This document shows positions 12,126 through 55,583 of a stretch of DNA of 64,000 nucleotides, piece by piece. The stretch comes from Clostridia bacterium. GTDB taxonomy: Bacteria; Bacillota; Clostridia; Oscillospirales; CAG-272. The position numbers and the translations under genes are program-made. Position 1 is the stretch's first letter, and each line of letters opens with the position of its first letter. The stretch lies in the NCBI GenBank assembly GCA_017451735.1, contig JAFTNU010000001.1, forward strand, positions 11,156-75,155, written 5' to 3'. The notes under the pieces are model-generated. The model was not told where the DNA came from and did no database searches. It saw only the letters and a program-made list of their open reading frames with translations.

Positions 12126-12166
12126 CCCCGGCCGACGCGTTGCGTCGGCCGGGGATGCTTTTATTT
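12126..12166. terminator. Bidirectional terminator between convergent genes
   Basis: 13-bp perfect stem CCCCGGCCGACGC / GCGTCGGCCGGGG, T-rich on the plus side. Confidence 0.65.
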
Positions 12167-12357
12167 GTCAAAGGACGGATTGAATGCGTAAAAATTTTTG
12201 CTGTCCATGTGATCCTGCGCAATGCGCAGGGCGTCGCCGAAGCGCTGATAATGCACCAGCTCCCGCTGACGCAGATATTTGATGGGATCCCGCACATCGG
12301 GGTCATCCACCATGCGCAGGATGTTGTCGTAGGTCACACGGGCCTTTTGCTCTGTTA
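12161..12357 (-). pseudogene. cotJC: cotJC segment 3 of 3 (C-terminal piece of the interrupted gene)
   Basis: Encodes (I)TEQKARVTYDNILRMVDDPDVRDPIKYLRQRELVHYQRF..SFDK, colinear with the CotJC/Mn-catalase C-terminus. It has no start of its own and abuts the element A junction core GTTA (12354-12357). Confidence 0.85.
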
Positions 12358-12391
12358 CTATCACGTATTCGCAACAAAATCGTGGTGTGTA

Positions 12392-12418
12392 AAAGTGCGA
12401 AAAATCCTTATTTTACAA
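12392..12418 (+). repeat. R-box copy (left end of element A)
   Basis: AAAGTGCGAAAAATCCTTATTTTACAA matches 34759-34785 at 25/27 in the same orientation. It lies 34 nt inside the junction core. Confidence 0.7.
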
Positions 12419-12450
12419 TGGTTTATAGCACTTTTGGGTTAACCCGTTTT

Positions 12451-14010
12451 TCAAAAATTCCAATGAATTTCGAGGGGTACGTTTCGTGTGCCCGGAATGC
12501 GCTTTCCGACCATTATTTTGTCGATCAAAATCTCCACCATTTCCCGTGTCAGATGCTCTACCTTGACGTATTTTTCGATCAGCTCACGGCGGTTGTCACC
12601 CACGGCAATTTTGACGTCGATCTCGGCAATTTGTTTTTGGCATTCGAGAACCTGCGATTCAAGGCGTTCTTTTTGCGAAGTGAAGTCCTTTGATAGCTCG
12701 ATGAAGTCAGCTTCACAAATCAAGCCCTTTACTTTGTCAAGATAGAGGTCGCGCACACCTTTGGAAAACTGATTGATCTTTCCTTGATAGGTTGTAATTT
12801 CGGCTTCGATTTCTTGCTTTTGCTCCAAGAGATCAGCATGAAACTGCACCTTGCGTTCCAACTCATCCATATCAAGATACTCGGCGTTGAGTCGCCTCAA
12901 CTCCGCGATGACCATCCGTTCAAGCCTATCCACCGAGATAAACGCGCCCACGCAAGCTCCCTTGGCGTAGTGTCGGCTGGGGCATTGCAGAAAGTGCCTT
13001 CCGCCCGACTTTGACGAGCGCATGACATACCCGCAGGATGCGCAACGCACTTTCTTGGCGAAAAGACCGATCGTGCCAACCTTGAACGGCTTTGCCCGTT
13101 CAGCTATCATCCTTTGCACTCGATCCCACAAGGCGCGATCAATGATGGGTTCGTGCGTACCTTCCACCCGAAACCATTGCTCCTTTGGGCGCGGTCGGTT
13201 GATCGAGGTTTTGTAGGAAATGCTCTCGTACTTGCCCTGAACGAGATTGCCGATGTAGGTCTCGTTGGTCAGCATATCCGAAATGGCGAAATACTTCCAC
13301 AGCGTACTGTTCTTGCTCGGCGGCAGACTGAACCTGAGCCCCTGCATCCGCTTGTACTCGGTGGGGTTGGGGATCCCTCGGTCATTGAGCATTCGCGCGA
13401 TTGCCGTCTTGCCATAGCCCTGCGAAAAAAGAGTAAACACCTCTCGCACCACGGCGGCTGCTTCCTCGTCGATAATGAGATGCCCTTTCAGGTCGGGATC
13501 CTTTTTGTATCCGTAGAGCGCAAAGGAACCGATGTGAAAGCCGTTTTTGCGGCGGCTGTCCAGCGCGGATTTGATGCTGTCCGACATATCCTCCAAGTAC
13601 CACTCGTTGACAAGTCCGTTGATCTGACGGCTTTTTTTGTTGCCCTTGTTGGCGGTGTCGGCGTTGTCCACGATGCTGACGAAACGAATACCCCAGATCG
13701 GAAAAAGACCGTGTATGTATCGCTCGACTAATTCAAGCTCACGGGTAAAACGGGATTGTGTTTTGCACAGAATAATATCAAATTTTCTCGCCTGTGCGTC
13801 AGCAAGTAACCGCTTGAACTCGGGACGGTTTCTATCCGAGCCTGCATAATCGTCGTCGCTGTAAATGCCGTAAAGCTCCCAGCCCATGCGGTCGGCGTAG
13901 TCGCGGAGCATCGCCTTTTGGTTCTGAATGCTACCCGAATCGTCGGTGGCGTTCTGCTTGTTTTTGTCCTCCTCGGACAGTCTGCAATAGATTGCTACTT
14001 TTTCTCTCAT
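12451..14010 (-). CDS. Large serine recombinase (element A)
   Basis: N-terminal resolvase domain with catalytic-Ser context VAIYCRLSEED. Recombinase domain, Zn-ribbon (CASCGY..LQCPSRHYAKGAC) and C-terminal coiled coil. RBS GGAGGAG. Confidence 0.9.
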   Translation of the reverse strand: MREKVAIYCRLSEEDKNKQNATDDSGSIQNQKAMLRDYADRMGWELYGIYSDDDYAGSDRNRPEFKRLLADAQARKFDIILCKTQSRFTRELELVERYIHGLFPIWGIRFVSIVDNADTANKGNKKSRQINGLVNEWYLEDMSDSIKSALDSRRKNGFHIGSFALYGYKKDPDLKGHLIIDEEAAAVVREVFTLFSQGYGKTAIARMLNDRGIPNPTEYKRMQGLRFSLPPSKNSTLWKYFAISDMLTNETYIGNLVQGKYESISYKTSINRPRPKEQWFRVEGTHEPIIDRALWDRVQRMIAERAKPFKVGTIGLFAKKVRCASCGYVMRSSKSGGRHFLQCPSRHYAKGACVGAFISVDRLERMVIAELRRLNAEYLDMDELERKVQFHADLLEQKQEIEAEITTYQGKINQFSKGVRDLYLDKVKGLICEADFIELSKDFTSQKERLESQVLECQKQIAEIDVKIAVGDNRRELIEKYVKVEHLTREMVEILIDKIMVGKRIPGTRNVPLEIHWNF

Positions 14011-14057
14011 GTTCTTATCTCCTCCACGATAAGAACAAGCTGTTTTCCTCCGCCTCT

Positions 14058-14087
14058 ATTATACCACAGACTGCCCTTGTTTGTCAT
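14058..14087 (-). promoter_or_regulatory. Promoter candidate for the element A recombinase
   Basis: Minus strand reads ATGACA, 18-nt spacer, TATAAT preceded by TGG. The spacer contains GGGCAGTCT, the motif shared with the dispersed repeats. Confidence 0.4.
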
Positions 14088-14218
14088 GAACTTGGAGTAA
14101 AATTTACACTTTTTCTGCGTTCTAACGTTGAGATCAGTTCTATCCATATACGCGTGTAATCCTCCTTCGTCAGTTCTTTTTTCTTGAAAACACTTATAAC
14201 GTGTGATTGCTTTTCCAT
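14084..14218 (-). CDS. Small hypothetical protein (44 aa) upstream of the recombinase
   Basis: AAAGGAG RBS 6 nt before the ATG. MEKQSHVISVFKKKELTKEDYTRIWIELISTLERRKSVNFTPSS. Below the ORF-track size cutoff and no homology recognised. Confidence 0.3.
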   Translation of the reverse strand: MEKQSHVISVFKKKELTKEDYTRIWIELISTLERRKSVNFTPSS

Positions 14219-14295
14219 GATTGTCTCCTTTCGGTTTACTAAAATAATATGAATTCGAGCATGTACACTATACTCGAATCGGTGTGTACGACTAT

Positions 14296-14324
14296 AGTAT
14301 AAACCATAAAATCCCGTTTGTCAT
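14296..14324 (-). promoter_or_regulatory. Promoter candidate overlapping an operator-like inverted repeat
   Basis: Minus strand reads ATGACA, 17-nt spacer, TATACT. The -35 lies inside TCCCGTTTGTCA (14312-14323), whose perfect inverted partner is at 14396-14407. Confidence 0.4.
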
Positions 14325-14849: not shown

Positions 14850-15971
14850 TTAGTCGTATTGAACTGGGATGCAACGACGGTGTTCCTGTCTGATTCTGCG
14901 ATTGATCGAATCAAAATCAAGGGGATGCCACCATGCGCTCCTCACCCATTCCGAGATCCATTCGTGGTCGGGATGGTCAGGATCGTTCAGGATTTTCATC
15001 TTCTCGTCAAACCCATACGGTCCGCCGCTGTCCTCCATCGGCGCGTCGCCAATCGCCTCGGTGCAGTGTGGGTACGGGGTAGTGCAGTCGGAAATAAAAC
15101 GCTTCAACTTTATCGTATGTATCCAACCGTCCCCGAAATCGTATTCATAGTCGATCTTCTTTTGCACTTCGAAAATTTCACGAACGGTAACCGTCGTGCT
15201 GTCAATGCTTTCAAGATTTTCGTCAAGCGCAAGCCAATCTTCGTTTTTCATAAATTCGGGCTGTATAATTTTCATCGGTCTGCCCATACTGTCCTTTTTC
15301 AAAACAAACTGATGCAGATGGCAATCGTGCCACTCAAATGCGTCTTGCAAAATCCTGTGAAGCTGATAGAAATTGAGATTGCTCGGAACGACCAATGTTC
15401 TCTTGCAGGGAGTAAGCAGATCAAGCGTGACTTCAAGCTCTGCCACGCGAGCAGATTGCACGGGGGTGCCGTATTTTTCGGTAAGCGCCGTGATCAGATT
15501 CTCATAGATAAACGAATAGTCATCCTTGGCAATCATATCGTCGTTGATCCACGGCAGATATTTCTCTTGAAGCATACTGTCAGATTCAAACAGATTCACA
15601 AAACGCTCTACTCGCTCGCACGCCTTGTTGCAATATGCAACGTCAGACCGAGACGCAGTTGTTGCAAATGTTAAGTCCTTCCCACATTCGTCAAGATATC
15701 TTTCTATAATCTCGGGAGCAATATACTCACTTTGCAATACCGCGCGAATACCGTCTTTCATCAGCGCGGGCATTTTGGCAATACTTTTTGCCGTTAGTCC
15801 GTGAAGCACGAAACAACATTTGGTCGCGTTGTTTACCGCAACCAACGTCTTGCGGCGATTCAGTATGATAAGATTCGCCGTCCAAAAAAACAGCGGGTCA
15901 CTCTCGGTAGTTAATTTTTGTGGCTTCACTGCCAAAAAGCCAAGCAGCTTTTTTGTACATCCTATAACCAT
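14850..15971 (-). CDS. pRiA4b ORF-3-like (MM3350-like) domain protein
   Basis: YEYDFGDGWIHTIKL is the hallmark DFGDxWxH motif. ATG at 15971 follows GGAAGGAGAG and the promoter at 16007-16034. Confidence 0.7.
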   Translation of the reverse strand: MVIGCTKKLLGFLAVKPQKLTTESDPLFFWTANLIILNRRKTLVAVNNATKCCFVLHGLTAKSIAKMPALMKDGIRAVLQSEYIAPEIIERYLDECGKDLTFATTASRSDVAYCNKACERVERFVNLFESDSMLQEKYLPWINDDMIAKDDYSFIYENLITALTEKYGTPVQSARVAELEVTLDLLTPCKRTLVVPSNLNFYQLHRILQDAFEWHDCHLHQFVLKKDSMGRPMKIIQPEFMKNEDWLALDENLESIDSTTVTVREIFEVQKKIDYEYDFGDGWIHTIKLKRFISDCTTPYPHCTEAIGDAPMEDSGGPYGFDEKMKILNDPDHPDHEWISEWVRSAWWHPLDFDSINRRIRQEHRRCIPVQYD

Positions 15972-16006
15972 CTTGCTCTCCTTCCTCGCACTCACTTCTA
16001 TAATAC

Positions 16007-16505: not shown

Positions 16506-16566
16506 TAGAAACGCTGAGTTTGAAAAAGTCAAGTAACATAAGGAATTATGCTTATTTTTAATTATC

Positions 16567-16622
16567 AAAAACAAGGGTACTTTTTGAGAGCGTTTTTTGC
16601 GCAAAAAATACCCATGTTTTTT
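16567..16622. terminator. Long bidirectional terminator hairpin (repeat copy b)
   Basis: AAAAACAAGGGTACTTTTT .. AAAAAATACCCATGTTTTTT. Confidence 0.6.
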
Positions 16623-16632
16623 AATGCGGATA

Positions 16633-16661
16633 TTGACAAACGTTATAACATTTGGTATAAT
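16633..16661 (+). promoter_or_regulatory. Consensus sigma-A promoter
   Basis: TTGACA, 17-nt spacer, TATAAT. About 40 nt upstream of the 16701 start. Confidence 0.65.
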
Positions 16662-16700
16662 AAAAATAATAAAACTTGTTATACAAAGCGGAGGCATAAA

Positions 16701-17564
16701 ATGCAAAAGCTAATCAAGAGAATAAGAGAATATTTGGGGCTGAGCCAAGCCGACTTCGCTGAGAAGCTGGGCGTGACCTTTGCGACCATTAACCGTTGGG
16801 AAAACGGTCGCGCAATTCCCACGAAGCTGGCGCAGGCAACCCTTTATGAATACTGCAAGGCACAAGGCGTTCCCGTTTACGATATGATCCTCGATAAGAT
16901 CAGAGCAACGACCGAAGAAATCGCACTTGAAGAAGGTCGCGTCCTTCTCTACCACGGCTCAAAATCGGGCATCGTTGGCGACATCGCACCCAAGAGCCGC
17001 GAGATGTGTGACTTCGGCAAGGGCTTCTATATGGGAACTGAGCCCGGACAACCGCTGACTCTGATATGCGATTTTGAAAAATCCAAGTTCTATATCGTGT
17101 CGATTGATACGCAAGAGCTTGATGCCATTGAGATCAAAGCCGACCTCGATTGGGCAATGCTTGTTGCATTCCACCGTGGCAGAATGGCGCAGATCAAGGG
17201 TACGGAGTTCTACAGCAAATACAGTCAACTTGATGCAGGCAAGGATCTCATAATCGGAAGCATCGCAAACGACAGAATGTTCTACGTGCTCGATAACTTC
17301 TTCACCGGCGGCATCACGGATATGGCACTCGTCAATAGCCTCTCTGCCCTCAAACTCGGAAAGCAGTACGTGGCGACCACCGAAAAGGCGTGTGCAGCCG
17401 TTCGCATTGAGAAGGAGCTCCCCATCTCCATGATGGAGCGCAGATTCCTTCAGGACGAAAGCGAAGCCAACCGACAGAAAGGAATACACCTTGCAAACGA
17501 TATTTGCAAGAACTATCGCCGTGAAGGAAAGTTCTTTGACGAAATACTTGACGAAGCAAAATAA
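16701..17564 (+). CDS. XRE-type HTH fused to a DUF3990-like domain
   Basis: RBS GCGGAGG. N-terminal HTH (LGLSQADFAEKLGVTFATINRWENGR). The C-terminal LYHGSKSG..DFGKGFYMG pattern is recalled as DUF3990. Confidence 0.65.
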   Translation: MQKLIKRIREYLGLSQADFAEKLGVTFATINRWENGRAIPTKLAQATLYEYCKAQGVPVYDMILDKIRATTEEIALEEGRVLLYHGSKSGIVGDIAPKSREMCDFGKGFYMGTEPGQPLTLICDFEKSKFYIVSIDTQELDAIEIKADLDWAMLVAFHRGRMAQIKGTEFYSKYSQLDAGKDLIIGSIANDRMFYVLDNFFTGGITDMALVNSLSALKLGKQYVATTEKACAAVRIEKELPISMMERRFLQDESEANRQKGIHLANDICKNYRREGKFFDEILDEAK

Positions 17565-18007: not shown

Positions 18008-19090
18008 ATGTCAGATAAGAATTGGCAATTTGAACTTGAAGAATATATAAAACAGGGTGAGCCCGGAAAAACAGAAAAAAGTGATGCATGGCGAACAGCC
18101 ATCGGTCTTCAAGCGGTAGACGGGCTGACTACCTCGGAATATCTTCTCGATACTGCGAAGGAGCATATCGAGGGTAACATCAGTATCGACGAGGCGCAAA
18201 AGCGCATTCAAAGCTACTATGAGCAACGTACCGAGCGCACCGAAATCGAAGATGCGATCAAGGAAGCCGATATCGTTTCCGCAAGAATCGCAAAGCTCCT
18301 CGGCGAAAAGAGTTTTCAGTTTTCGCCTGCGGAGTGGATGACCATTCACCGCAGACTGTTCGAGGGCGTATTCAAGCACGCAGGTCAGGTCAGACCATAC
18401 AACATCACCAAGAAGGAATGGGTGCTGAACGGCGACACGGTCATCTATGCGGATTTCAACAGCATCCGTGATACTTTGGATTACGACTTCGCAACCGAAA
18501 AACAGTTCTCATACGAGGGGTTGTCCGTAGAAGCAGCCGTTAAACACCTTGCAAAATTTGCATCGGACATCTGGCAGATCCATCCCTTCTGCGAGGGCAA
18601 CACGAGAGCGACTGCCGTCTTTATGATCAAATATATGAAAACATTCGGTTTCCGCGTAAATAACGATGCTTTCCAAAAGAATTCGTGGTATTTCCGCAAT
18701 GCGCTTGTAAGAGCGAACTACAACAATTTGCAAAAAGGCATTCATTCCACAACGAAATTTTTGGAAATGTTCTTCGACAATCTCCTCTTGGAAACCAATC
18801 ACGAGTTGAGAAACAGATATATGCATGTGGATTACGTGGCTGAAAATGATTTCCAAAGTATCATTTCCAAAGCTCCAAAGTCTCAATTTGATACTTTGGA
18901 CTGCACTTTGGAAGAATTGGCGGTGCTGGAATTGGTAGCAAAAAATCCAATGATAAAACAGCAAGAGCTTGCCGATGCCACGGGAAAATCTATCGCCACC
19001 ATCAAACGCGTGATGAAATCCCTGCAAGACAAGAACTATATCCGCCGCGAAAGCGGAAAACGCTACGGCAAATGGGAAGTTTTAGTATAA
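18008..19090 (+). CDS. Fic-family protein with C-terminal winged-helix domain
   Basis: Fic motif HPFCEGNTRATAVF (HxFx[DE]GN[GT]R). C-terminal MarR-like wHTH (ELADATGKSIATIKRVMKSLQDKNYIRR). Confidence 0.8.
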   Translation: MSDKNWQFELEEYIKQGEPGKTEKSDAWRTAIGLQAVDGLTTSEYLLDTAKEHIEGNISIDEAQKRIQSYYEQRTERTEIEDAIKEADIVSARIAKLLGEKSFQFSPAEWMTIHRRLFEGVFKHAGQVRPYNITKKEWVLNGDTVIYADFNSIRDTLDYDFATEKQFSYEGLSVEAAVKHLAKFASDIWQIHPFCEGNTRATAVFMIKYMKTFGFRVNNDAFQKNSWYFRNALVRANYNNLQKGIHSTTKFLEMFFDNLLLETNHELRNRYMHVDYVAENDFQSIISKAPKSQFDTLDCTLEELAVLELVAKNPMIKQQELADATGKSIATIKRVMKSLQDKNYIRRESGKRYGKWEVLV

Positions 19091-19109
19091 TATGAAAGAG
19101 GAAACAAAA

Positions 19110-19949
19110 ATGGCTATCAGTAAAAAACTTGAAATTATATATCACAACGGTCAGCCCGATGGAATTCGATCCATTCGCAGACATCTCTCCACGATGACAA
19201 CCTATGTTATTCCTCGTCCTCTGCTGTCGGAAGCAAAGAAACTTTCCAGAATCAACCGCCCCGGAATCTACTATCTGATCAGCGAGAATGACGATAACAA
19301 AATCGCTCAGATTTATATCGGTCAGACGAGAAATGGCGTTGTTCGCCTTGATGATCATAATCGTTCAAAGGACTTTTGGAATAAAGCAATTATGTTCTTG
19401 GCAGATAACAAAACATTCTCTCTTGATATGATAAGCGGTCTTGAAGCTTATGCCATCGGCAAGGCTCACGACTCCAAGCGCTACAAAGTGGAAAATTCGG
19501 TCAATCCCAAGTATGAGATTGATGAATATGATCTCCCTTTAATCGAGGAGGTTTACGAAGAAATTCAATTCATCATGGCAACGCAGGGCTACAAGATGGA
19601 TAACTCCAAAACAACCCTAAATGAAGCTAATACGTTACATACCACTCGCAACGGAATTCTTGCTTTTGGTGTTTACGACGGTGAGAATTTTGAGGTTTTG
19701 GAAGGCTCGGAAATCGATATGAACCGTAGATGCCATTCGGCAACGATAGAAAAACAACGCCAAACAGCTCTCGCAAACGGCAATATTGTTTGCATTGACG
19801 GAAAATACAAATTAAATGTTTCTGTATCCTTCACCTCTCCCAGCTCTGCTGCTATGTTTGCTTTGGGCGGCAGTACAAATGGTTGGGTTGAATGGAAAGA
19901 CAAAGACGGAAAAACGCTGGACGAGATTTATAGAAAACAATTCAACTGA
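19110..19949 (+). CDS. GIY-YIG nuclease domain protein with DUF4357-like C-terminus
   Basis: PGIYYLISEN..IYIGQT (GIY..YIG). C-terminal FTSPSSAAMFALGGSTNGWVEWK resembles DUF4357. ATG at 19110 follows AAAGAGGAAA (alternative ATG at 19092). Confidence 0.7.
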   Translation: MAISKKLEIIYHNGQPDGIRSIRRHLSTMTTYVIPRPLLSEAKKLSRINRPGIYYLISENDDNKIAQIYIGQTRNGVVRLDDHNRSKDFWNKAIMFLADNKTFSLDMISGLEAYAIGKAHDSKRYKVENSVNPKYEIDEYDLPLIEEVYEEIQFIMATQGYKMDNSKTTLNEANTLHTTRNGILAFGVYDGENFEVLEGSEIDMNRRCHSATIEKQRQTALANGNIVCIDGKYKLNVSVSFTSPSSAAMFALGGSTNGWVEWKDKDGKTLDEIYRKQFN

Positions 19950-19980: not shown

Positions 19981-22545
19981 ATGTCTATCAGATTATGGCC
20001 GCAAGACTTTGAACGTAAAGATCATATTACAAAAGCCGAAAAGGCTCTTTTGAGGTATGCTTCTCGCAACTTTCAGAATGGTCATATGGTGATAGGTATT
20101 GACCCTGTAGGATTAAGTACCGATAAAGTTAGAATGGGAATGTATATTTCACCTAACGAGGGGCTTGTTACATTCTCGATATATACAGGTAGCATTAATG
20201 CCTTATTAATCCCTCACTATATCAGTTATGTTGAAATGGTCGAGGCGAAAATACACGAGCGCCTTTTGGATTCTAAAATGTTGATCGTTAGAAATGGGCA
20301 AAATAAGGCTCTCAAATTTCCTTATAAACACATTATAATTTTTGCGGATGAAACTGCTGGAAAAACTACTCTCTCATCGCAAGATCTTAATAAATTGTTG
20401 CACTATGCTACCTTTGAATCCTTTAGACCGATTACATCTCAAGGCAAGGAAAAAAGAATTGAAGACTTGATGGTATTCGGAGGAATTAGGAAAGCGTACG
20501 ACAAAACATTCAAGTCTTTGTCTGATTCGGAATGCAGAGCGATATTTGAACGTTTGGCGGAAGAATACACCGTCGTAATGAATGAAACCGAAAACGTTAA
20601 AATTACCGAAAAGAAAGCTCTTGTTACAGAAAAAGATCTTCGAATAACCGGTCGAGAGGTGGAATACAAGACCTTTTTCCTTGATGAATATCAGGTCGGT
20701 GTCGTTAACGATATGGGTAAAGGACATCGTGTAATCCTTGCGAACCCTGGGGCTGGAAAGAGTGTATTGTTATTGTCGAAAGCTTTCAAATACGCGAGCC
20801 TTTATAAAGGTTCCAATGTCTTGTTGACTTGCTATAATAACAATTTGGCAGATTCTTATAATTTTAAGCGTAACTGCGCGAATTTTGGCGAAAATAATAA
20901 TTTGTTTATTATGACTTTCCATAAACTCGTCAAAAAGATTTATGAGGAATGTCTCCATTCGCACTGTGAAACCAACATAGCAACTGATGAAGAGATTCAA
21001 AAGTGCATAGATTTGGTGAAACAAGGAAAGGTTAATCTTAAATTTAAGGCAATTTTCATAGATGAAGTTCAAATTTTTGATCCTCTCTACCTTGAATTGT
21101 GCTATAGCTTACTTGAAGAAGACGAAGATCGAGTTTTCTTGATGGCCGGCGACTTGAATCAGGCTGTTCGAGCGTTGAGCCGAAAAGGAGATGCACCGTG
21201 GAAACGAATGAACGGTGTCCATTTGGACTTTACTGGGCGCGTTCGTTACATTGAAAAAAACTATAGAAACAGTAAGGAAATCGGCGAATACATTTCTCAT
21301 ATGTTACAGCATATGAACACTCGCCTCTCAATGTTGGATTTGATCAATTCACTTGAATATGAGTATAACTCATTTAAGATAGGTACAAATCCAACAATAG
21401 CATTGAAAGTTCAAACCGGAGTTCAAAGAATAGATATAAAAAAGCAAGTAATTGCAGCTATTAAAGAAATCTCCACAAAATACAAAATCAGTTATTCGGA
21501 AATCGCTGTGCTTTTCCCGTTCAGAAAGGTTCCTTATCACAAATATCACTTCCTGTATTGGCTTCAGCAAGGACTTGACGAAGAAGGAATCCCTTATTCG
21601 ATGATTATTAACGAACATGAAGGAAGTCATGTTAAGGTGAGACAAGGGGATATTTCCGGAGTGGTTGTATCTACTATTGAATCTTCGCTCGGACTGGACT
21701 TTAAGGCTGTTATTTTAGCAGGTCTATACCCCTATAGCTATGTCAATGTGGATGGCGAGGTTGTCGGGGATATCAAAACATGGACCAGCATTAAGAATAT
21801 GCCTGACAATCAACAAACTGCTGTCCAAAGCCAAATGCGAGCTGTATATACTGCGTGTTCAAGAGCTCGAGATGTGTTGTATGTTATAAGTGATTTGAAA
21901 CCCGGTTCTCCTATGGAAGAGATCATAAAGAAGCAATCTGACAGGAACAGTGTATCAACATCAACTGTACGCATGTCGCCAACACCTGCCAAGGCCAACA
22001 GCAATACCAGCTCAAGAACGGCAGGCAACAATTCTTTTACAACAACTAAAGAGTATTTAGTACAAGAGGTCACTGACCACGTTACGGTTCAGGCAACGAT
22101 TCAAGAGTCTAAAAAGCCTACTACTATTACTGTTGATGTTGCAAAATACCCGAAGCAGAAAAGCATTATTGGAAAAAAGGTCGGGGAAACATTTAAGTTT
22201 GTGGGTATTCCCTTAACCTACAAAATAGATAAAATCATTTCTTCCGAACCGCCTAAGTTTGATAAAGGACCTACGATATCAACAAAGCCTATAGAAGCTA
22301 AGCCTGCTGTAAAAAATTCTTCACCAACTGAGAAAAAGCTTTCACTAAAAGAATATTTTGAAAGCAAAGGCTTTTTCACTATAGACTGTCGCGGATGGAA
22401 CGGATGTCTTTGGGTTCTTGGCGATCAAAAGAAATTAGAGCCGTATGTAACAGAAGCAAAACGATTATATGGAGCAACTGGTGCGTATGGTTCGGGTAAA
22501 CAAACCAACTATAAACCTGCATGGTGGACAAAATCGAACAAATAA
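19981..22545 (+). CDS. UvrD/SF1-type helicase with N- and C-terminal extensions
   Basis: Walker A NPGAGKSVLL, Walker B FIDEVQIFD. UvrD_C-like STIESSLGLDFKAVIL and YTACSRARDVLYV. A low-complexity linker then a small C-terminal domain. Confidence 0.75.
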   Translation: MSIRLWPQDFERKDHITKAEKALLRYASRNFQNGHMVIGIDPVGLSTDKVRMGMYISPNEGLVTFSIYTGSINALLIPHYISYVEMVEAKIHERLLDSKMLIVRNGQNKALKFPYKHIIIFADETAGKTTLSSQDLNKLLHYATFESFRPITSQGKEKRIEDLMVFGGIRKAYDKTFKSLSDSECRAIFERLAEEYTVVMNETENVKITEKKALVTEKDLRITGREVEYKTFFLDEYQVGVVNDMGKGHRVILANPGAGKSVLLLSKAFKYASLYKGSNVLLTCYNNNLADSYNFKRNCANFGENNNLFIMTFHKLVKKIYEECLHSHCETNIATDEEIQKCIDLVKQGKVNLKFKAIFIDEVQIFDPLYLELCYSLLEEDEDRVFLMAGDLNQAVRALSRKGDAPWKRMNGVHLDFTGRVRYIEKNYRNSKEIGEYISHMLQHMNTRLSMLDLINSLEYEYNSFKIGTNPTIALKVQTGVQRIDIKKQVIAAIKEISTKYKISYSEIAVLFPFRKVPYHKYHFLYWLQQGLDEEGIPYSMIINEHEGSHVKVRQGDISGVVVSTIESSLGLDFKAVILAGLYPYSYVNVDGEVVGDIKTWTSIKNMPDNQQTAVQSQMRAVYTACSRARDVLYVISDLKPGSPMEEIIKKQSDRNSVSTSTVRMSPTPAKANSNTSSRTAGNNSFTTTKEYLVQEVTDHVTVQATIQESKKPTTITVDVAKYPKQKSIIGKKVGETFKFVGIPLTYKIDKIISSEPPKFDKGPTISTKPIEAKPAVKNSSPTEKKLSLKEYFESKGFFTIDCRGWNGCLWVLGDQKKLEPYVTEAKRLYGATGAYGSGKQTNYKPAWWTKSNK

Positions 22546-22580
22546 ACAACAATCTTGGTACTCAACAGGAGGATCATCAT

Positions 22581-25500
22581 ATGGCAAATAATTATAACAT
22601 TTTAGCAGATTACATAGTATCCAAATACATCGAAAGAATCTCCGGAGAAGATATTGCGGAGACTTTTGTAGATGATTCTCCTGCTGATCGTGTTATGGTC
22701 GGTATGTTAGCCGAAAACAGAATGGAGCAGCGATTTGACGGTGGATACGCAGAAAATAGTACCACTCGTTTCGAAAGCGTTCCGTCTATAAGCGTTTCTT
22801 TTGCTGTGAAAAAGAATCCGTTGGGTATGCTTAAGGTTGTTCCAAAAGGTCTCCTGTTTTATACAGTAGAACCTGACTATGATAAGACAGTTGCTTTTTT
22901 GATACAAAAGTATTCTGAAAAGGATAACGTTCGATATACCAACATTCAGCAACTTTGCGATGCCCACCCCGAAGACAAGTTCTATCTTCCTTTGACATAT
23001 AAAAAAATCAAGATCGAAGATGAAATGAAAGGTGGAATATCTGTACCGCTAATATCTCTTCAAGAATCCAAATTTCATTTGGAACAACAGATAAACGAAC
23101 GCCTTTCTGAACTTGCCGATAAAATTAGCAACGAGATTAAGGTGATAAAAAGTGATCGCGTATCTTTGTTTGACTTGGTGGATAAAGAACGCTTTTATCT
23201 GGTGACTGGTGGAAGCGAAGAGCCTGTATATCCTCGTTGGATTATCGATATCTATTGTACGGTTATTGACGAGGGGGACTCCTACCACTTCTTGATGCAG
23301 ATGGTTAATAAGACCCCTGTAAACGGAAAAAGCAATATTGGCTATCTGCCTAAAGTATTCAATGCCGGGATGGATATCATCGGCAACAGAGCTGTTAAGT
23401 TCAAAAATATAGATTTGGACTACTTCAAAAGCAGTTACAAATCTCGTTCTTTGGTATATGCTGTTGCAGAAAACACATCTGCTTCTCACTGCCCCGAAGA
23501 TAATGCTATACGTACTGACAATATTCCTCGGTACTACCAAAAGCGCTTGAAAACCAAAGACGGATTAACCGAATATGTTAAATTTGAAAAGCTTATTCAA
23601 GATCCTGTTGGCAATTTGAATTGCATTTACAGAGAGATGAAGGCTGATTACGAACAATGTTCTAACGAATTTAACACTACAAGATTTCCCAGTGCTGTCG
23701 CAAAAGATAAATTCAGAACAGCGTTGGAGGAATATGGTCGCGAAATAGCTCGTTTCAAAAAAGGCATAGAACAAATTGAATATAAGGATTATGTTAAAAA
23801 GGCTTTTGTTTGTATGAACAAAACCTTTATGACAAAACTTTCTGGTGAGCATAGACAAATTAGCGGTTGGCGTTTGTTTCAGATCGTATTTATAGTCTCT
23901 TTGATTTGTGAAATGATCAGAAGTGAATATAAGAATGACAGGACCATCGCTGAAGCTGATATAGAAATGGCAAATCTTTTGTATTTTCCCACAGGTGGTG
24001 GTAAGACAGAAGCTTTTCTTGGTGCATGCGTTTTCAATATGTTTTTTGATCGCTTACGCGGCAAAAACGAAGGAATTACTGCTTTTCTTAAATATCCCTT
24101 GAGATTGCTTGCAGTACAGCAGTTAGATCGTGTACTGACAATTGTTATGAAGGCAAATGTTGTACGCGAATCTATTCCCGAGCTTGCTCACAAGACACCG
24201 TTCCAAGTAGGATTTTTTGTTGGAAAAGGAAATACACCTAACAAGATTGATGCTTATGAGCGTTTGAGCGAACGCGGAGAAAAGAATAAATCGAAAGATC
24301 TTATTCTTGAAAGCGATCAGGAAACCCTGAACGATTATTATCGCTTCATCGATACTTGTCCCTTCTGCGGTAAGAAAGAGGTTAATCTTCGTTTTAATCA
24401 AGACAATTGGAAATTGGAGCATGTTTGCGACAACCCCGAGTGCCCCATCAATGTGCTCCCCTTGATGATTGTCGATAATGAAATATATCGATACTTGCCC
24501 TCTATTGTAGTTAGCACAATAGATAAAATGGCTATGCTTGGTACAAGCAACGATTTCAAGATGCTGTTTGGTCAAGTAAAGAAAAAATGCCCCGTGCATG
24601 GATTTACAAGCACTTCAAGATGTTCTTGCTCCGCTTGTAATAACAATTCTCTTGAGAATGTAGGATTGCTGAAGGATCCTATCCCCACTTTATTTATTCA
24701 AGACGAAATGCACTTGGTAAAAGAGAGTTTGGGAACATTTGATGCGCACTATGAGTCTTTTTTGAGTTATTATGCCAAAGAACTTGTTCCGGAAGCTCAT
24801 CGTAAACTTATTCGCTTTGTGGGTGCAACCGCGACAATTTCCATGTATGAAGCTCACATATGGAATTTGTATCACATGGAGGGACGCCGGTTCCCGTGTG
24901 AATATCCTTCTGCTAAATCCGGAGAGGATTTTTATTCGTATACCGATGAAAACGACATAACTCGTATATTGATCGGCTATGCACCTTACGGAAGGTCTAT
25001 CACAGATGGAATGTGGGAATCCGTATATATTATGAGGCTCATTGTCTACAGAATGATTCAATTCATAGATGAGAGTTATGCAGCTCTATGTGATGCAGGA
25101 TTTGTTGGCAGCATCGATGAGTACAAGGAAATGCTATATGATTATTGGATCGAATTGGTTTACAACAACCGCAAGCAAGATGCAATGGAACTCGAAAATG
25201 CATTTCAAAACCAGGCTAACAACTATTTGGAAGCCAAGGGCGTTCCAAAATATGTTATAGAGCAAATGACCAGTGATGTGGATTTTCAAACGGTAAGAAA
25301 AACATTGTTTGATATCCATGCAAACAGAAGAAATTTTGATAGTACCAACTTGCTATTGGCAACAAGTACGATCTCACATGGTGTAGACGAGGATTCCTTC
25401 AACATTATGTATTTCTTTGGTATGCCCAACAATAACGCAGAGTATATTCAAGCATATTCTCGTACCGGACGTAAACATACGGGTATAGTCGTTGATATTA

Positions 25501-27902: not shown

Positions 27903-27904
27903 TT

Positions 27905-39621: not shown

Positions 39622-39990
39622 ATGACACAGATACAAACGGACGCGATCCGGAAGCTGACCGAGGCGAAGCACGACGGGCTCACGGATATGCAGAAATATC
39701 TTGCCACCCACGTGGCAAAGACGTGCGCTCAGTTCTGCGAGCAGAGCGAGGAGTTCGCTGCCGCCGTGATGGCACAGGACAAGTCCCTGGTCGGATGCAT
39801 GAAGGCAATGACGCTCCCCGGGCGAGGGCTCGGATATCTTTCGGATTTTGAGGTATACCGTATGGCGGCGCGGTATTTCTTTCCCGAATCGGACGTAGAG
39901 TGGTCCATGAAGATTTCCATGCCGGCGAAAAACCAGACGTCTGCGAAGATCCTGGAACTGAAATTCGAGGATCTGCTGAATTTTCTGTGA
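39622..39990 (+). CDS. Hypothetical protein
   Basis: 122-aa ORF packed in the same operon. No motif recognised. Confidence 0.55.
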   Translation: MTQIQTDAIRKLTEAKHDGLTDMQKYLATHVAKTCAQFCEQSEEFAAAVMAQDKSLVGCMKAMTLPGRGLGYLSDFEVYRMAARYFFPESDVEWSMKISMPAKNQTSAKILELKFEDLLNFL

Positions 39991-39998
39991 GGTGCGCC

Positions 39999-43614: not shown

Positions 43615-44466
43615 ATGGCTGGTCGTCCGCTCAAAAGTGGAGTTGATTACTGGTCGTTTGATGTTGGACTGTTTGAAGATAAGAAATTCAAACTGATCCG
43701 CGGGGAGTTTGGCGCTAAAGGCGTGTTGATCGCGCTTTTTGCGCTGAACTCCTGCTATAAGGACAATGGGTATTTCAGAGTTTGGGAGGATGATGACGCG
43801 ATCCTGCTTTCAGAGGAAGTAGGTTGTGGTTGTTCTCCAGGGCTTGTGCAGCAGGTCGTACGGGCGTGTGTCGCGCGTTCGCTTTTTGATAAGCGGGTTT
43901 TCGATACGCACCAAGTGTTGACTTCTGTGGGTATCCAGCGGCGCTACTTGCGAATTGTAGCGAAGAACCGCCTTGCCATACCGCTGATCTCAGAGTATTG
44001 GGTCTTGCCGAAAGACGAGATCCCGCCCGATACTCTTTTAAAGTGTACCTTTAAAAACATCAACGACACGGAAAAATCAATTATCCGCACGGAAAATGAA
44101 GAAGCCCGAACGGAAAATAACACTAATGAAAGTAAACGAAGTAAACAGTTTTCCTCTCCCGCGCGCGAAGGCACGGAGACCTTTGGACGTTTTCAGAACG
44201 TGTTCTTGCTTCCCGAGGAATATCAGACCTTGAAAGAGCAGATCCCCGATACGGATGCTTTCATAGATGCCTTTTCGGAGAAGCTGGAGAGCAAAGGGTA
44301 CGTTTATCAGAATCATTTTGCCACGCTTTTGTTGTGGTATCGTGATGAGCAAAAGGAGAAAATGGGTAGAACCGAAGGAAAGAAGGAGCCCGTAAGTCAA
44401 AGCAGCTTTGACATTGACGATATGTGGGAAGCTGCATTAAAACGGACATATGGCGACATGGAATGA
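43615..44466 (+). CDS. DUF4373 (Lin1244/Lin1753-like) replisome-organizer-type protein
   Basis: MAGRPLKSGVDYWSFDVGLFEDKKFKLIRGEFGAKG matches the DUF4373 N-terminus seen in phage replication modules. Confidence 0.55.
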   Translation: MAGRPLKSGVDYWSFDVGLFEDKKFKLIRGEFGAKGVLIALFALNSCYKDNGYFRVWEDDDAILLSEEVGCGCSPGLVQQVVRACVARSLFDKRVFDTHQVLTSVGIQRRYLRIVAKNRLAIPLISEYWVLPKDEIPPDTLLKCTFKNINDTEKSIIRTENEEARTENNTNESKRSKQFSSPAREGTETFGRFQNVFLLPEEYQTLKEQIPDTDAFIDAFSEKLESKGYVYQNHFATLLLWYRDEQKEKMGRTEGKKEPVSQSSFDIDDMWEAALKRTYGDME

Positions 44467-44478: not shown

Positions 44479-44643
44479 ATGCTATTACATATCGGCGGAT
44501 TTAATATATTTCAAAACGATACGACCTTTGGTGTGTGGATCTATAAAGAGGGCAAGTGCATTGCCACTGCCTCCTGTAACGGCCCGTTGGACGGTAAGAC
44601 CCTTATGGAAATTTTATATCACGTACAAGGAGGGCGGAAATGA
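44479..44643 (+). CDS. Hypothetical small protein (54 aa)
   Basis: AAAGGAGG RBS. Stop overlaps the next start (ATGA). Confidence 0.35.
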   Translation: MLLHIGGFNIFQNDTTFGVWIYKEGKCIATASCNGPLDGKTLMEILYHVQGGRK

Positions 44644-44999
44644 CAAAGGAAGATTTGTTGGAATATAACTCTCTATGCGACGAATGGGACGAGCTGTGCC
44701 GACGGATCAATGAGTTGGAGCAGCATCACGAAGTGAATCGCTCTGCCTTTGCCGAGTTGGTTTATGATCGCAGACTGCTCTCTTTGAAAAAGAGGAAAGT
44801 GTACGTGGACGAGCGTATCAGCGCCATGGAAGTAGAGATCGAACGTCTGCCGAGTATAGAGCGCCGATTGATCTGTCTCCGCTATTTTGAAGGTTGGAGT
44901 TGGCGTAAGATTGCGTGTGAATTGGGGTATTCATACGATCATGTAACTGGATATTTGCATAAAAAAGCGCTTTGCGATTTGAAAGTTAACAATTCATAA
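44640..44999 (+). CDS. Sigma-70 region-4-type HTH protein (phage late-regulator-like)
   Basis: LPSIERRLICLRYFEGWSWRKIACELGYSYDHVTGYLHKKAL is a region-4-like HTH. Confidence 0.55.
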   Translation: MTKEDLLEYNSLCDEWDELCRRINELEQHHEVNRSAFAELVYDRRLLSLKKRKVYVDERISAMEVEIERLPSIERRLICLRYFEGWSWRKIACELGYSYDHVTGYLHKKALCDLKVNNS

Positions 45000-47365: not shown

Positions 47366-48535
47366 ATGACCAAGTTTTTGCTTGCGTTGTTAGCGATCCT
47401 GGTCTGTCTGGGATGTGTTGTTGGAGTGTCGAACTTCAATAACACATCCGGTACGGTGGATCGTGTGGACACTTCTCCCGATGCCGATGGTACATCGACG
47501 GCCGAATTTATCGTGATCCAGGAGGAGTTTACCAGCGTGGAGGCTATGAATGCCGGATTTGAGACCGATGGTGTTTCGATCGGCGGCTATGTTCTGGTCA
47601 ACACCAGTGATGTCGAGGACGAAGACAACGCGAAAATGTATATCAAACGTGCGGATGGCTATAAGTTGGTCACCGATCTTTCCGGCGCCAGTGGTGAGCA
47701 AGGCCCCCAGGGCGAAAAGGGCGAACAGGGTGAGCAAGGCATCCAGGGCGTCCAAGGTCCCCAGGGAGAAAAGGGCGAACAAGGTGAGCAAGGCATCCAG
47801 GGTGTCCAAGGCCCCCAGGGCGAAAAGGGCGAACAGGGTGAGCAAGGCATCCAGGGCGTCCAAGGCCCCCAGGGTGAAAAGGGCGAACAGGGTGAGCAAG
47901 GCATCCAGGGCGTCCAAGGTCCTCAAGGTGAGAAAGGTGATCAAGGTGTTAGCATAACCGGCGCAACCATAAACGAAAGCGGGCATCTTATCATTACTCT
48001 TTCCGACGGTACTACCATTGACGCCGGATTGGTCAGCAACGGTTCTGCCGATAGCGATGGTATTACCTATACCGATGTTTGTTTGTGGGACATAGAAACT
48101 TCGACTTGGGTGGATTTAAGCCTTAATGCTCCAGACGATGATAGTCTCCAACGGCAGAGTTGCCCATATTGTAGCAACCGTGTGTATACAACTGGTACGA
48201 TATATTCTCTCAGCGTTGACACTTCATGCCCCCATTGTCAAAAAGGAATTCGCCTTGACAACCGCGAAGGCTCGCTTGTTGTCGATGTTCTCTATGCCGA
48301 TGATACTGCAACCTATATGGTGACCTTGTCTGATGGTAGTATGGAATCGAGTAGTATTAGCAAATATTACGGTGGCAGTTCGATGGGTTACTACTACAAC
48401 GAAACACATAATGTGATGTTCTTAACGTGGAGTTACATTGGTGATATTTCCGGCGATGTTACTGTTACGTTAGACGATGGCACAGAAGTCACCATTGCGG
48501 CATCCGATTGGAAAACGAATCCGTACTATGTGTGA
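47366..48535 (+). CDS. Collagen-like (G-X-Y) repeat protein with N-terminal signal/anchor
   Basis: Signal-like [19 protein letters not shown]. 28 uninterrupted G-X-Y triplets ([18 protein letters not shown] repeated). Cys-rich C-terminal domain. Confidence 0.8.
47693..47945 (+). repeat. 54-bp coding tandem repeat (about 4.5 copies)
   Basis: Near-identical 54-bp units that differ mostly at third codon positions. Confidence 0.85.
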
Positions 48536-53712: not shown

Positions 53713-54714
53713 ATGCTTTGCAGAGTTTTTCATGATGGTACTAACTATGTAGCTCATGCCCCCGGCAGAAGCCCGTATGCCGGCGTAAAACGGCGTCCGA
53801 AGAAGCCCCACGAACTGGCTTTCCGAGAGCTTTATCGCAGCACTCTCACGGGCACCAGATCCGTGACCGCGGATGGCGTTAGCTTTACCCCCGGCATCAG
53901 CGGCAAGAAACAGGCGCAGTACATCATGGAAACTCTGGAAGACACCTTCGGCGCCATAGAGAATTGGGAAAAATTCGTTGAAGAGGAATTTGCCCGGGAG
54001 GAGCACAATTATTACGTACGGAAACGGCGCTTTTGCCGTAAGGCATTTCTCAACGACTGGAACTATTTTGTAACCTTTACTTACAGTGACGAAAAGGAGA
54101 CCGAGGAGAGCTTCAAGCGGCGATTGAGACGTGCACTGTCGAATCTCCATTCCCGTAGGAACTGGTACTATATGGGGTGTTTCGAGCGCTCCGAGATCGG
54201 AAGACTGCACTTTCATGGGCTCTTTTATATCCCGCCGGGGCAAATGGTGGGAAAGATTCGCGAGGAAAAGTCCTATAGCACCAAGCGGCGGCGTATGCAG
54301 ATCTCTTTTATTAACAGTTGGTTTGAGAAGCGCTTCGGTCGTAACGACTTTGAGGAGATCACGGGCGACGACGTCAAACGCGGTCCCACGTTGGGGTATA
54401 TTCTGAAATATATCGAGAAGACGGGGGAACGAATCATCTACAGCCGCGGCATTCCCACCAACATTGTGGCAGAGATCAGTTATGATCAGTGTGTGTGCGA
54501 GTTTTTTAATTTTGTCAGGAAGTGGGTACTGTTCCGTGATTGGCAAAGGATAAATCCATGCACCGAAAACAAGCTCCTGGAGGGAGAGGAAGCCGAGGAG
54601 TGGCTGATCTGCTTCACCGGTTATGAATACGAGGGCTACAGTTGTTTTTCTGAGCCCGATCCACCGCCCCGCCCAACAGGTCCGTACATTCCGTCTCCTT
54701 ATCTCACAGCATAG
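53713..54714 (+). CDS. HUH rolling-circle replication initiator (two-tyrosine, phiX174 gpA-like motif set)
   Basis: Motif 1 FVTFTY, motif 2 RLHFHGLFY (HUH), motif 3 YILKYIEK (YxxKY, compare phiX174 YVAKYVNK). Confidence 0.7.
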   Translation: MLCRVFHDGTNYVAHAPGRSPYAGVKRRPKKPHELAFRELYRSTLTGTRSVTADGVSFTPGISGKKQAQYIMETLEDTFGAIENWEKFVEEEFAREEHNYYVRKRRFCRKAFLNDWNYFVTFTYSDEKETEESFKRRLRRALSNLHSRRNWYYMGCFERSEIGRLHFHGLFYIPPGQMVGKIREEKSYSTKRRRMQISFINSWFEKRFGRNDFEEITGDDVKRGPTLGYILKYIEKTGERIIYSRGIPTNIVAEISYDQCVCEFFNFVRKWVLFRDWQRINPCTENKLLEGEEAEEWLICFTGYEYEGYSCFSEPDPPPRPTGPYIPSPYLTA

Positions 54715-54717
54715 ATC

Positions 54718-54741
54718 AAAAACCGCAACGTTGCCGTTTTT
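54718..54741 (+). terminator. Element B hairpin repeat, copy 4
   Basis: AAAAACCGCAACGTTGCCGTTTTT, 3 nt after the Rep stop. Confidence 0.5.
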
Positions 54742-54834
54742 GACCTCTCCCTACCATCTCCTTTTTCTTTCTGAAAAAATGACATAACCTCGGCAGCCCT
54801 TGTGGTGCCGACTGTCTTAAACCAGTTTTCCATA

Positions 54835-55030
54835 TGTGGTAAGGTGGTGGCATGTACGGTAGATCGGTAGACTTTTGCACATGCATGGCTTGTGTGAAAG
54901 TCGTGAAGCCGATCACCGTGCAGGACAAAAAAGCGGTAGGCGGTCATGCCCCTCTGTGGTAAGGCGGCACCATAGGTAAAGCGGTAGGTTTTTGCACATG
55001 CGTAGCTTGTGTTAAAACCGTTAAGCCGAT
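54835..55030 (+). repeat. Iteron-like direct repeats (two ~78-nt units, ~120-bp period, plus shorter copies up to 55194)
   Basis: TGTGGTAAGG..GGTAG..TTTTGCACATGC..GCTTGTGT..AAGCCGAT occurs twice. The 18-mer GAAAGTCGTGAAGCCGAT is exact at 54896 and 55110. TTTCCAYATRKGG occurs three times. Confidence 0.65.
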
Positions 55031-55241
55031 TTGCCGTATATGGGGCAAAAATCGGTAGAGCTTTTCAACCGCCTTAGCGGTCGTAGACAGATCCCGAGGG
55101 GAGCTGTTGGAAAGTCGTGAAGCCGATTTTTAGGCTTTCCACATAGGGGCAGGAACGGCGTGAAGGCGCTTTTTAAGCTTTCCACATGTGGTAAACTTGC
55201 CGTCTGTGCAGAAACAGACAATAAAACTCAAACAAAAAAAG

Positions 55242-55267
55242 AGCCCATGAGAGCCATGGGCTTTTTG
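55242..55267. terminator. Bidirectional hairpin terminator
   Basis: A-run, AGCCCATG / CATGGGCT, T-run. Confidence 0.55.
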
Positions 55268-55272
55268 GCGTT

Positions 55273-55376
55273 GCGGCGGATTACGGTCAAGGGTGACGAA
55301 AGACGCATCGGGGGACGCCGAGGCAGGAGCGAAGCCCCCTCGGCGCCCCGCGCTTTCGCACCTTGACCGCCGCCGC
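55273..55376. other. About 104-nt GC-rich imperfect hairpin
   Basis: GCGGCGG..GGTCAAGG..CGAAAG..GGGGACGCCGAGG pairs with CCTCGGCGCCCC..CTTTCG..CCTTGACC GCCGCCGC. An overlapping alternative hairpin lies at 55371-55390. Confidence 0.55.
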
Positions 55377-55491
55377 GCGTCAGCGCGGCGGCGCTCGTCA
55401 AGTCAAGGTGTCGTCTAATGCTCATTTTTAAAAAAATGGGTGATGAGAGTGTATGTGATGTGACACTAATTCTCATAAATTACATTTAGGC

Positions 55492-55583
55492 CCGCCCAGC
55501 TGACTGATGATGATCTTGGCGTAATTGGCGTTGGGGGTCTTGATCTTAACGGGGTATTGCAGCTTCTTATCATAGGTCCACAT
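55492..55583 (-). pseudogene. cotJC: cotJC segment 1 of 3 (N-terminal piece)
   Basis: ATG at 55583 lies 3 nt after the cotJB stop, with an AAGGAGG RBS inside the cotJB end. MWTYDKKLQYPVKIKTPNANYAKIIISQLGG matches the B. subtilis CotJC N-terminus (MWVYEKKLQYPVKV..). It ends at the core CCGCC. Confidence 0.85.

Follow-up and report, generated by a model that had tools for sequence, protein, structure and literature searches.

Two unrelated serine recombinase elements split the spore coat gene cotJC of a Clostridia bacterium into three pieces

Interrupted sporulation genes are a classic example of mobile DNA co-opted into development, and to our knowledge each case in a spore-former has involved one element in one gene. 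We present here a 64,000-nucleotide stretch of DNA from a Clostridia bacterium (Oscillospirales, CAG-272; assembly GCA_017451735.1, contig JAFTNU010000001.1, positions 11,156 to 75,155), hereafter the window, in which the spore coat gene cotJC lies in three pieces separated by two unrelated elements, each carrying its own large serine recombinase (LSR). Joined at 2-bp crossovers, GG for one element and GA for the other, the pieces restore an open gene of 597 nt and 198 codons. We lean towards the reading that both elements entered cotJC by LSR recombination, that the insertions are reversible, and that excision restores the gene, most likely in the mother cell.

The divided gene and its junctions

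The cotJABC operon is recognized by Pfam, and several orthologues of the cotJC product are named spore coat protein JC. The parts of the operon and the two elements lie in the window as follows.

55856-56113, minus strand: cotJA (Pfam CotJA, 7.7e-14)
55587-55859, minus strand: cotJB (Pfam CotJB, 5.7e-28)
55492-55583, minus strand: cotJC piece A, codons 1-31, including the GG crossover copy at 55492-55493
35149-55491: element 2, a phage/plasmid-like integrative element of 20,343 bp, with a GG core copy at 35149-35150
34834-35148, minus strand: cotJC piece B, codons 32-135 and the GA of codon 136
12351-34833: element 1, a non-phage defence island of 22,483 bp, with a GA core copy at 12351-12352
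12161-12350, minus strand: cotJC piece C, the remainder of codon 136 to the stop

An earlier note on this DNA, made from the sequence alone, had proposed such a double split, and its outline was borne out by Pfam matches and translation. The cotJC start codon (ATG at 55583) stands 3 nt past cotJB, and the three pieces follow on the minus strand in the correct order. Piece A encodes MWTYDKKLQYPVKIKTPNANYAKIIISQLGG up to ...SQLGG and breaks off at 55492, beyond which the sequence is unrelated. Piece B (35148-34834) begins PDGEL and encodes PDGELAAAMRYLHQRY...NEDLAA, and piece C (12350-12161) encodes EQKARVTYDNIL...SFDK, followed by the stop codon. The gaps between pieces, 20,343 bp (A to B) and 22,483 bp (B to C), each hold one LSR gene, on the cotJC strand and at the end nearest the 3′ part of cotJC (35173-36708 and 12451-14010), again as the note had described. 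GC content is about 55% in the host flanks, about 40% in element 1 and 40-54% in element 2.

The possibility of a chimeric assembly, which the note had raised, was checked against the intact loci of relatives; these map colinearly onto the window with exactly two gaps. In blastn, the single 4.3-kb loci L001 and L002 (our designations, here and below, for loci of other genomes) match the upstream genes, cotJA, cotJB and piece A to 55489, then 35153-34834, then 12352-12160, and continue in the downstream host gene (window 12117-11538). Colinearity with only these two gaps argues that the window is not a chimera.

At junction 1, between pieces A and B, GGCGG is common to both ends, and the attP dyad is centered on its last GG. 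Because GGCGG is shared, the restored product does not depend on the exact cut. Both this junction and its attB site are as the note had given them. At junction 2, between pieces B and C, the note had placed the crossover at a GTTA core (TAAC on the other strand), which is off by 15 nt. Across this point, 20 intact relatives have the DNA sequence ...GAGGATCTnGCnGCnGAGCAAAAGGC..., and blastn of intact loci against the window stops at 34834 and restarts at 12352, an overlap of exactly 2 nt; because both fall there, the crossover is GA, with copies at 34834-34835 and 12351-12352 (TC on the plus strand). The sequences at this junction are ...GCCGCTGA|TGCTGC... on the left and ...TAACAGA|GCAAAAGG... 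on the right. The attB predicted from the GTTA core for site 2 is accordingly wrong; the correct plus-strand sequence is GGCCTTTTGCTCAGCGGCAAGATCC.

The TAAC/GTTA core was rejected on two grounds: it adds five residues, DAAIT, which are absent from 12 of the 12 intact homologues aligned, and it does not lie where homology to the empty site ends. The TAAC/GTTA identity is a chance match inside element 1. The joined sequence of the note is, as claimed, 612 nt and 203 codons long, open, a match to Pfam Mn_catalase (E = 7.8e-54) and colinear with intact CotJC, apart from the five extra residues at junction 2; its frame stayed open because the 15-nt error is a multiple of three.

The correctly restored gene, of 597 nt and 198 codons, is about 88-93% identical to intact 198-residue orthologues without an insertion or deletion, and 107 of the 120 best intact homologues listed are 198 residues long (85-91% identity). 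The restored protein would read QLGGPDGEL and EDLAAEQKAR across its two junctions. The joined product matches Mn_catalase over residues 1-189 (7.8e-54), and solved Mn catalases align across both junctions. Both cores, GG and GA, are non-palindromic, as is required of directional serine recombinases. In reconstructed attP2, dyad symmetry covers 20 of the 25 bases closest to the GG core and, by our own count, 24 of the 30 shown (arms TCATAAATTACA); for reconstructed attP1 the figure is 15 of 25 positions around GA. Numbered by element, the predicted excision junctions are attB2 CAGCTGGGCGGCCCCGACGG, attB1 GATCTTGCCGCTGAGCAAAAGGCC, attP2 …ATTACAATCTGGCGGGCCTAAATGTAAT… and attP1 …GATAGTAACAGATGCTGCAATAAC…. 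The recombinase genes end 99 nt (recombinase 1) and 22 nt (recombinase 2) from attR1 and attR2, respectively.

Outside the operon, the flanks consist of ordinary chromosomal genes: purM, purB and purH behind a ZTP riboswitch, a diaminopimelate (DAP) dehydrogenase gene and an ABC transporter.

56326-56418, plus strand: ZMP/ZTP riboswitch (60 bits, above the gathering score), divergent from cotJA and ahead of PurM, PurB and PurH

The two elements and their cargo

That two different elements, each with its own LSR and att sites, occupy one cotJC was likewise upheld. Recombinases 1 and 2 are 28% identical, from which we conclude that the elements are independent, and their cargo is entirely different. 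Restoring an intact cotJC would thus take two independent, precise excisions, as the note had argued. Element 1 contains the following features.

12451-14010, minus strand: recombinase 1, an LSR of TnpX/TndX type (Pfam Resolvase, Recombinase, Zn_ribbon_recom and C-terminal DUF4368)
14084-14218, minus strand: conserved 44-aa open reading frame (ORF)
14850-15995, minus strand: PRiA4_ORF3/DUF6933
16548-17564, plus strand: HTH and DUF3990 (PDC-M13/M42)
18008-19090, plus strand: Fic (PDC-S72)
19092-19949, plus strand: GIY-YIG/DUF4357 (PDC-S14)
19981-22545, plus strand: UvrD-like helicase
22521-25979, plus strand: DrmA (3.9e-132)
25992-27902, plus strand: DrmB (7.2e-52)
27890-29494, plus strand: NERD-helicase
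29494-30312, plus strand: D12 methyltransferase
30312-32618, plus strand: DndB/DpdB-like
32748-33128: YjbR
33914-34576, plus strand: Mn-catalase paralogue of 220 aa (Pfam Mn_catalase, 5.5e-56)

The gene content of element 1 includes no recognized phage, conjugation or mobilization gene and no resistance cargo. Of the DISARM gene set, DrmA and DrmB are present; the methyltransferase is of the D12 class, and the helicases match NERD and UvrD models, not DrmD/E. The cargo is best called DISARM-like, as it is not the canonical gene set.

Among solved structures, recombinase 1 best matches TnpX (2mhc, 6.7e-15). GA is present at both ends of element 1 and in the target and is invariant in about 60 related junctions. 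The recombinase TndX has been reported to be both necessary and sufficient for integration as well as excision, to use GA invariably, and to act on DNA coding for a conserved protein domain (PMC4430133). Recombinase 1, with its GA crossover and its target in a conserved motif, fits this TnpX/TndX type. The 44-aa ORF just upstream, kept in 11 related elements and without a Pfam match, is a speculative candidate for an accessory or directionality factor. Downstream of it, the 5′ region of recombinase 1 (14010-14240, minus strand) contains an extended −10 box and a hairpin that sequesters the ribosome-binding site. Recombinase 2 has a perfect TTGACA-17-TGnTATAAT promoter (36776-36748) and a terminator-like leader hairpin (36704-36678). 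Together, the two 5′ regions suggest that expression of both genes may be controlled after initiation.

A 44-nt direct repeat (12392-12435 and 34759-34802, minus strand; 36 of 44 positions identical) lies about 40-85 nt inside both ends of element 1. Its core, TTGTAAAATAAGGnTTTTTCnCACTTT, is a small hairpin with a T-run. The repeat is present also in locus L173 and in related right ends, and may act as a terminator or as a site for accessory binding.

The Mn-catalase paralogue near the end of element 1 was missed in the earlier note, whose picture of this element is incomplete in that respect. About 260 nt separate the gene from the piece B end of the element, and it is convergent with that piece. 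Its product is 35% identical to the host CotJC, and it has no cotJA or cotJB partners. Copies are found in at least 80 species, with proteins 90-99% identical, DNA only 84-88% identical, and omega (the ratio of nonsynonymous to synonymous substitution rates) of 0.01-0.04. In eight other species, the paralogue shares a contig with a broken cotJC or a recombinase of the type of recombinase 1, and we therefore place it inside such an element there; it stands beside a broken cotJC in about a quarter of the fully flanked loci. The idea that it is always element-borne was rejected, as very similar copies adjoin housekeeping genes. The paralogue could compensate for the loss of CotJC or could be ordinary cargo.

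Two related cotJC-splitting elements (L285, 4492-7707; L253, 3076-5648) carry, beside the paralogue, host-like genes for a DAO/Rieske oxidoreductase, a choloylglycine hydrolase, a cupin and a YetF-like DUF421 protein. The DAO/Rieske gene neighbors the paralogue in a chromosomal locus (L240) too, so the pair looks like a captured chromosomal block. Many contigs with the paralogue (L247, L249, L251, L252, L257 and others) end within a few hundred bases downstream of it, which points to a repeated or heterogeneous att region that interrupts assembly there.

Element 2 contains the following features.

35173-36644, minus strand: recombinase 2, an LSR (Pfam Resolvase, Recombinase and Zn_ribbon_recom); listed ORF start TTG at 36708, likely start ATG at 36644, as relatives align from about residue 24
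36754-37761, minus strand: Abi_2
37817-38602, minus strand: S24/HTH CI-like repressor
39622-39990: PcfK-like
39900-40538: DUF7666
40535-42403: PcfJ
42407-43603: DUF3102
43615-44466: Lin1244_N replication protein
44640-44999: sigma70_r4
47366-48535: collagen-like, tail-fibre-like
53713-54714: REP_ORF2-G2P

Searches with PHROGs and Pfam recognized no terminase, portal, capsid or packaging gene in element 2, where divergent structural genes are possible. A tailed prophage was considered and rejected, given this lack of packaging and capsid genes and only weak matches to uncultured phages. The region 54700-55470 contains iteron-like repeats of CGGCTTCACGACTTTC and its variants, beside the REP_ORF2-G2P gene, and two strong minus-strand terminator hairpins directly 3′ of cotJC piece A.

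Recurrence of split cotJC

Relatives of recombinase 1 (73-98% identical) were found in 80 species-representative genomes and relatives of recombinase 2 (37-72% identical) in 79. Breaks in cotJC fall at three sites, which we number along the protein irrespective of the element numbers: GG|PDGE (site 1, element 2), AA|EQKAR (site 2, element 1) and GT|EELAHLE (site 3).

At site 2, a cotJC fragment lies right beside the recombinase 1 relative in 74 of the 80 genomes, always broken at residue 133-136, and the element end, ...CAGA followed by (G/A)CA(A/G)AA(G/A)GC, is invariant. One subgroup has the 5′ piece of cotJC next to the recombinase instead; among its members are Anaerotignum lactatifermentans, Blautia difficilis, Clostridium fessum and Roseburia faecis JCM 17581, the last with a complete genome. 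At site 1, a cotJC fragment abuts the recombinase 2 relative in 50 of the 79 genomes, with the break at about residue 30-33 in GGnGGn|CCnGAyGG. Breaks at site 3 (residue 63/64; loci L188, L213, L218, L239, L208, L125, L148 and L155) adjoin an LSR of a third lineage, which shares 23-29% identity with the other two.

The double split of the earlier note is real, and its recurrence in other species was missed there: at least 13 others have one, in the following combinations.

Sites 1 and 2: L173, L211, L236, L140, L132
Sites 1 and 3: L188, L213, L218, L239, L208
Sites 3 and 2: L125, L148 (isolate Marseille-Q4145), L155

Past its GA break, L173 is 77% identical to the left end of element 1 in the window, and we conclude that the same two element families are stacked there. 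In locus L040 (SVSV01000038.1), the cotJC match covers only residues 1-176 despite flanking sequence, and a further break or a divergent C terminus is possible.

Altogether, cotJC is split in over 120 species. Cultured carriers are Clostridiaceae bacterium Marseille-Q4145 (double split), R. faecis JCM 17581, A. lactatifermentans DSM 14214, C. fessum SNUG30386, B. difficilis M29 and Lacrimispora indolis, among others. The three sites fall in metal-ligand motifs of the Mn-catalase fold, which are the most conserved DNA of cotJC; because the DNA at the insertion sites is almost invariant between hosts, the gene is a portable landing pad. Between hosts in which the adjacent CotJC piece is only about 63-85% identical, recombinase 1 shows 92-98% identity. 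This greater similarity of the recombinase points to horizontal transfer between species, that is, to active integration.

Excision, alternative explanations and known systems

The interrupted gene appears to remain under selection. All 48 of the co-directional 3′ fragments start with EQKAR; 42 are open for 62-86 codons, 5 stop after 45-50 and 1 runs off its contig. Residues E136, E166 and H169, taken to be metal ligands, are kept in 50 of 50 interrupted fragments. Pairwise omega is 0.13 for the 50 interrupted fragments and 0.08 for intact genes, which is weak evidence, as the two sets differ in phylogenetic breadth and the synonymous divergence (dS) is saturated; the joined gene of the window gives 0.04-0.10 against intact orthologues at a dS of about 1. 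Because the fragments stay intact under purifying selection, excision coupled to sporulation is plausible.

According to the reading we favor, element 2 would have crossed over at GG in the codons for GG|PDGE and element 1 at GA in those for AA|EQKAR. Each recombinase could rejoin its own attL and attR, so that two independent excisions would yield the 597-nt, 198-codon cotJC. We infer that excision occurs, and with it its timing and control, from this anatomy and from precedent. Developmental excision is probable. It would take place in the terminally differentiating mother cell, as in skin/sigK, SPbeta/spsM, gin/gerE and yin/yabG, whose layout the earlier note had rightly seen in part here. 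The spore would receive a normal coat, and the forespore genome would keep both elements. Sporulation-specific excision of LSR elements from mother-cell genes has precedents (PMC4191935, PMC5595907, PMC5025042, PMC10747680). An AC-16 nt-CATAnnnT box 5′ of cotJA, kept in the window and four relatives, resembles mother-cell (sigma-E/sigma-K) promoters, and together with what is known of B. subtilis it suggests that cotJ is expressed in the mother cell.

Several observations weigh against developmental excision. An exact-match search of viral and metagenome contigs found neither the attP1 and attP2 junctions nor restored attB, a result that is uninformative on timing. No recombination directionality factor (RDF) was recognized, and a Pfam search of the small ORFs for Xis- or RDF-like domains gave no match; we know of no sequence signature common to RDFs. 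A scan of both elements for B. subtilis-style sigma-E/sigma-K promoters found nothing next to the recombinases, as neither of its two matches lies close to a recombinase or a correctly oriented candidate RDF. The promoters of both recombinase genes are of the sigma-A type. In SPbeta, developmental control is exerted through the RDF, with the integrase expressed constitutively (PMC5499854); sigma-A promoters are equally compatible with such a scheme and with the absence of developmental control. An RDF expressed by read-through from the cotJ promoter into the adjoining end of element 2 was considered and rejected: the small minus-strand ORFs at 54.7-55.5 kb are of low complexity, and two strong terminators follow piece A. 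Since these ORFs look non-coding and lie behind the terminators, cotJ read-through is unlikely to drive excision. B. subtilis cotJ mutants still make spores, and element 1 supplies its own Mn catalase, which might make restoration of cotJC unnecessary. The intact fragments could reflect recent acquisition, and recently relaxed selection would be invisible because dS is saturated (about 1). Finally, three substitutions in piece B (F114T, V119I and G120A) are private to the CotJC of the window, all 12 close intact homologues having F, V and G; they could reflect slightly relaxed constraint or a more distant lineage.

In a rival reading, cotJC is simply a safe harbor, targeted only for its conserved metal-ligand codons and its dispensability, and inactivated in its carriers. 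Excision would then be infrequent, independent of cell type and in the service of transfer, with no developmental control, and the paralogue might compensate in part. This is a serious possibility, though one we incline to doubt. The TndX precedent (required and sufficient in both directions, GA, conserved-domain target; PMC4430133) speaks for it, recombinase 1 being of that type, as do the sigma-A-type promoters of both recombinases, the lack of an RDF or sporulation promoter in the element scans, the strong conservation of the Mn-catalase paralogue in element 1, and the close recombinase relatives in diverged hosts, which indicate recent spread. It is harder to reconcile with 48-50 fragments that have no internal stop, frameshift or loss of ligand residues across very diverged hosts, with omega near 0.1, and with a paralogue only 35% identical to CotJC and without cotJA/cotJB partners. 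Moreover, in every sporulation gene where it has been tested, the element excises in the mother cell (PMC4191935, PMC5595907, PMC10747680).

Two further explanations concern the state of the elements and of the assembly. That they are old, fixed, vertically inherited intervening sequences, no longer mobile, comparable to a degenerate skin and with recombinases domesticated by this host alone, would agree with the lack of recognizable transfer or phage genes in element 1 and with the paralogue, plus the DAO/Rieske gene in L285 and L253, looking like captured chromosomal genes. We consider it improbable, as the flanking host gene differs far more from species to species than recombinase 1 does, the cargo between conserved ends varies greatly by species (about 2 kb to 20 kb), and many close relatives have empty sites. 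An assembly artefact, in which the window would be a chimera joined at repeated recombinase or cotJC sequence and its arrangement would exist in no single genome, is more improbable again. Nearly all the relatives are metagenome-assembled genomes, and contigs with the paralogue often end just downstream of it, as such an artefact might predict. Against it, the outer flanks and the three pieces match single intact loci, and the breaks are exact to the base pair at GG and GA. The same double break is present in the independent assemblies L173, L211 and L236, the first with the 77%-identical element 1 end beyond its break, and breaks at the same codons occur in isolates, including the complete genome of R. 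faecis JCM 17581 and Clostridiaceae bacterium Marseille-Q4145.

Building on the reading we favor, we put forward a broader one only tentatively. Here cotJC would be a dedicated multi-site landing pad in gut Clostridia, with three LSR lineages each using one block of metal-ligand codons (GG|PDGE, GT|EELAHLE and AA|EQKAR) and with as many as two elements, perhaps three, sharing a single gene. Mother cells would excise all of them, each independently and possibly in a set order. The gene would serve as a vehicle for defence islands, and one element family would bring a stand-in Mn catalase that buffers failed excision. If true, cotJC would be to Firmicutes what the multiply fragmented nif genes are to cyanobacteria.

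The pattern of three sites at the most conserved codons, three recombinase lineages and widespread single and double splits has several implications. If excision is coupled to sporulation, many gut Clostridia need several independent DNA rearrangements to assemble their spore coat, and cotJC offers a tractable system for studying how several recombinase and directionality modules are coordinated. The elements also reveal a way in which anti-phage defence islands pass from one gut spore-former to another, and they are a source of natural LSR/att pairs with defined 2-bp cores.

Single interruption of cotJC has been mentioned before: 10.1101/2021.11.22.469490, citing Abe et al. 2013, names the gene as a frequent integration target. 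Our literature search found no description of two elements in one Firmicute sporulation gene, of three cotJC hot spots each with a dedicated LSR lineage, or of a defence island with a paralogue of its own target gene among the cargo.

The closest known systems are skin in sigK (B. subtilis and C. difficile) and SPbeta in spsM, in which an LSR-bounded element likewise splits a mother-cell gene in frame, with the recombinase at one end, and precise excision rebuilds the gene (PMC4191935, PMC5025042). The present case differs in having two elements in one gene and in its target, a coat structural or enzymatic gene and not a regulator. An equivalent of SprB, Skr or CD1234 was not identified here, and excision is predicted from the anatomy. 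The gin element in gerE of B. cereus ATCC 10987 is, like element 1, not a prophage; it is 28.6 kb long, uses serine recombinases and occupies a small mother-cell gene (PMC5595907). It has three recombinase genes and a proven RDF, GirX, whereas element 1 has one TnpX/TndX-type recombinase and a cargo consisting of a DISARM-like defence island and a paralogue of the split gene.

Several elements with their own recombinases in one gene of a terminally differentiated cell, all of which must go, are known from the nif genes of heterocystous cyanobacteria (PMC4874684, PMC11249958). These belong to another phylum and cell type, and their excision is demonstrated, whereas that from cotJC is predicted. 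With Tn4451 and Tn5397 (TnpX and TndX), element 1 shares the LSR domain set including DUF4368, the invariant GA and a target in a conserved motif, which is Fic-encoding DNA for TndX and the Mn catalase for recombinase 1 (PMC4430133). Element 1 differs from them in having no recognized conjugation or mobilization genes and no resistance cargo, and in its apparently tight target specificity, with the same codon in 74 of 80 genomes. Mechanistically, the elements described here belong with the intervening elements of sporulation genes (skin, SPbeta, vfbin, vrin, gin and yin), element 1 using a recombination module of the TnpX/TndX type.

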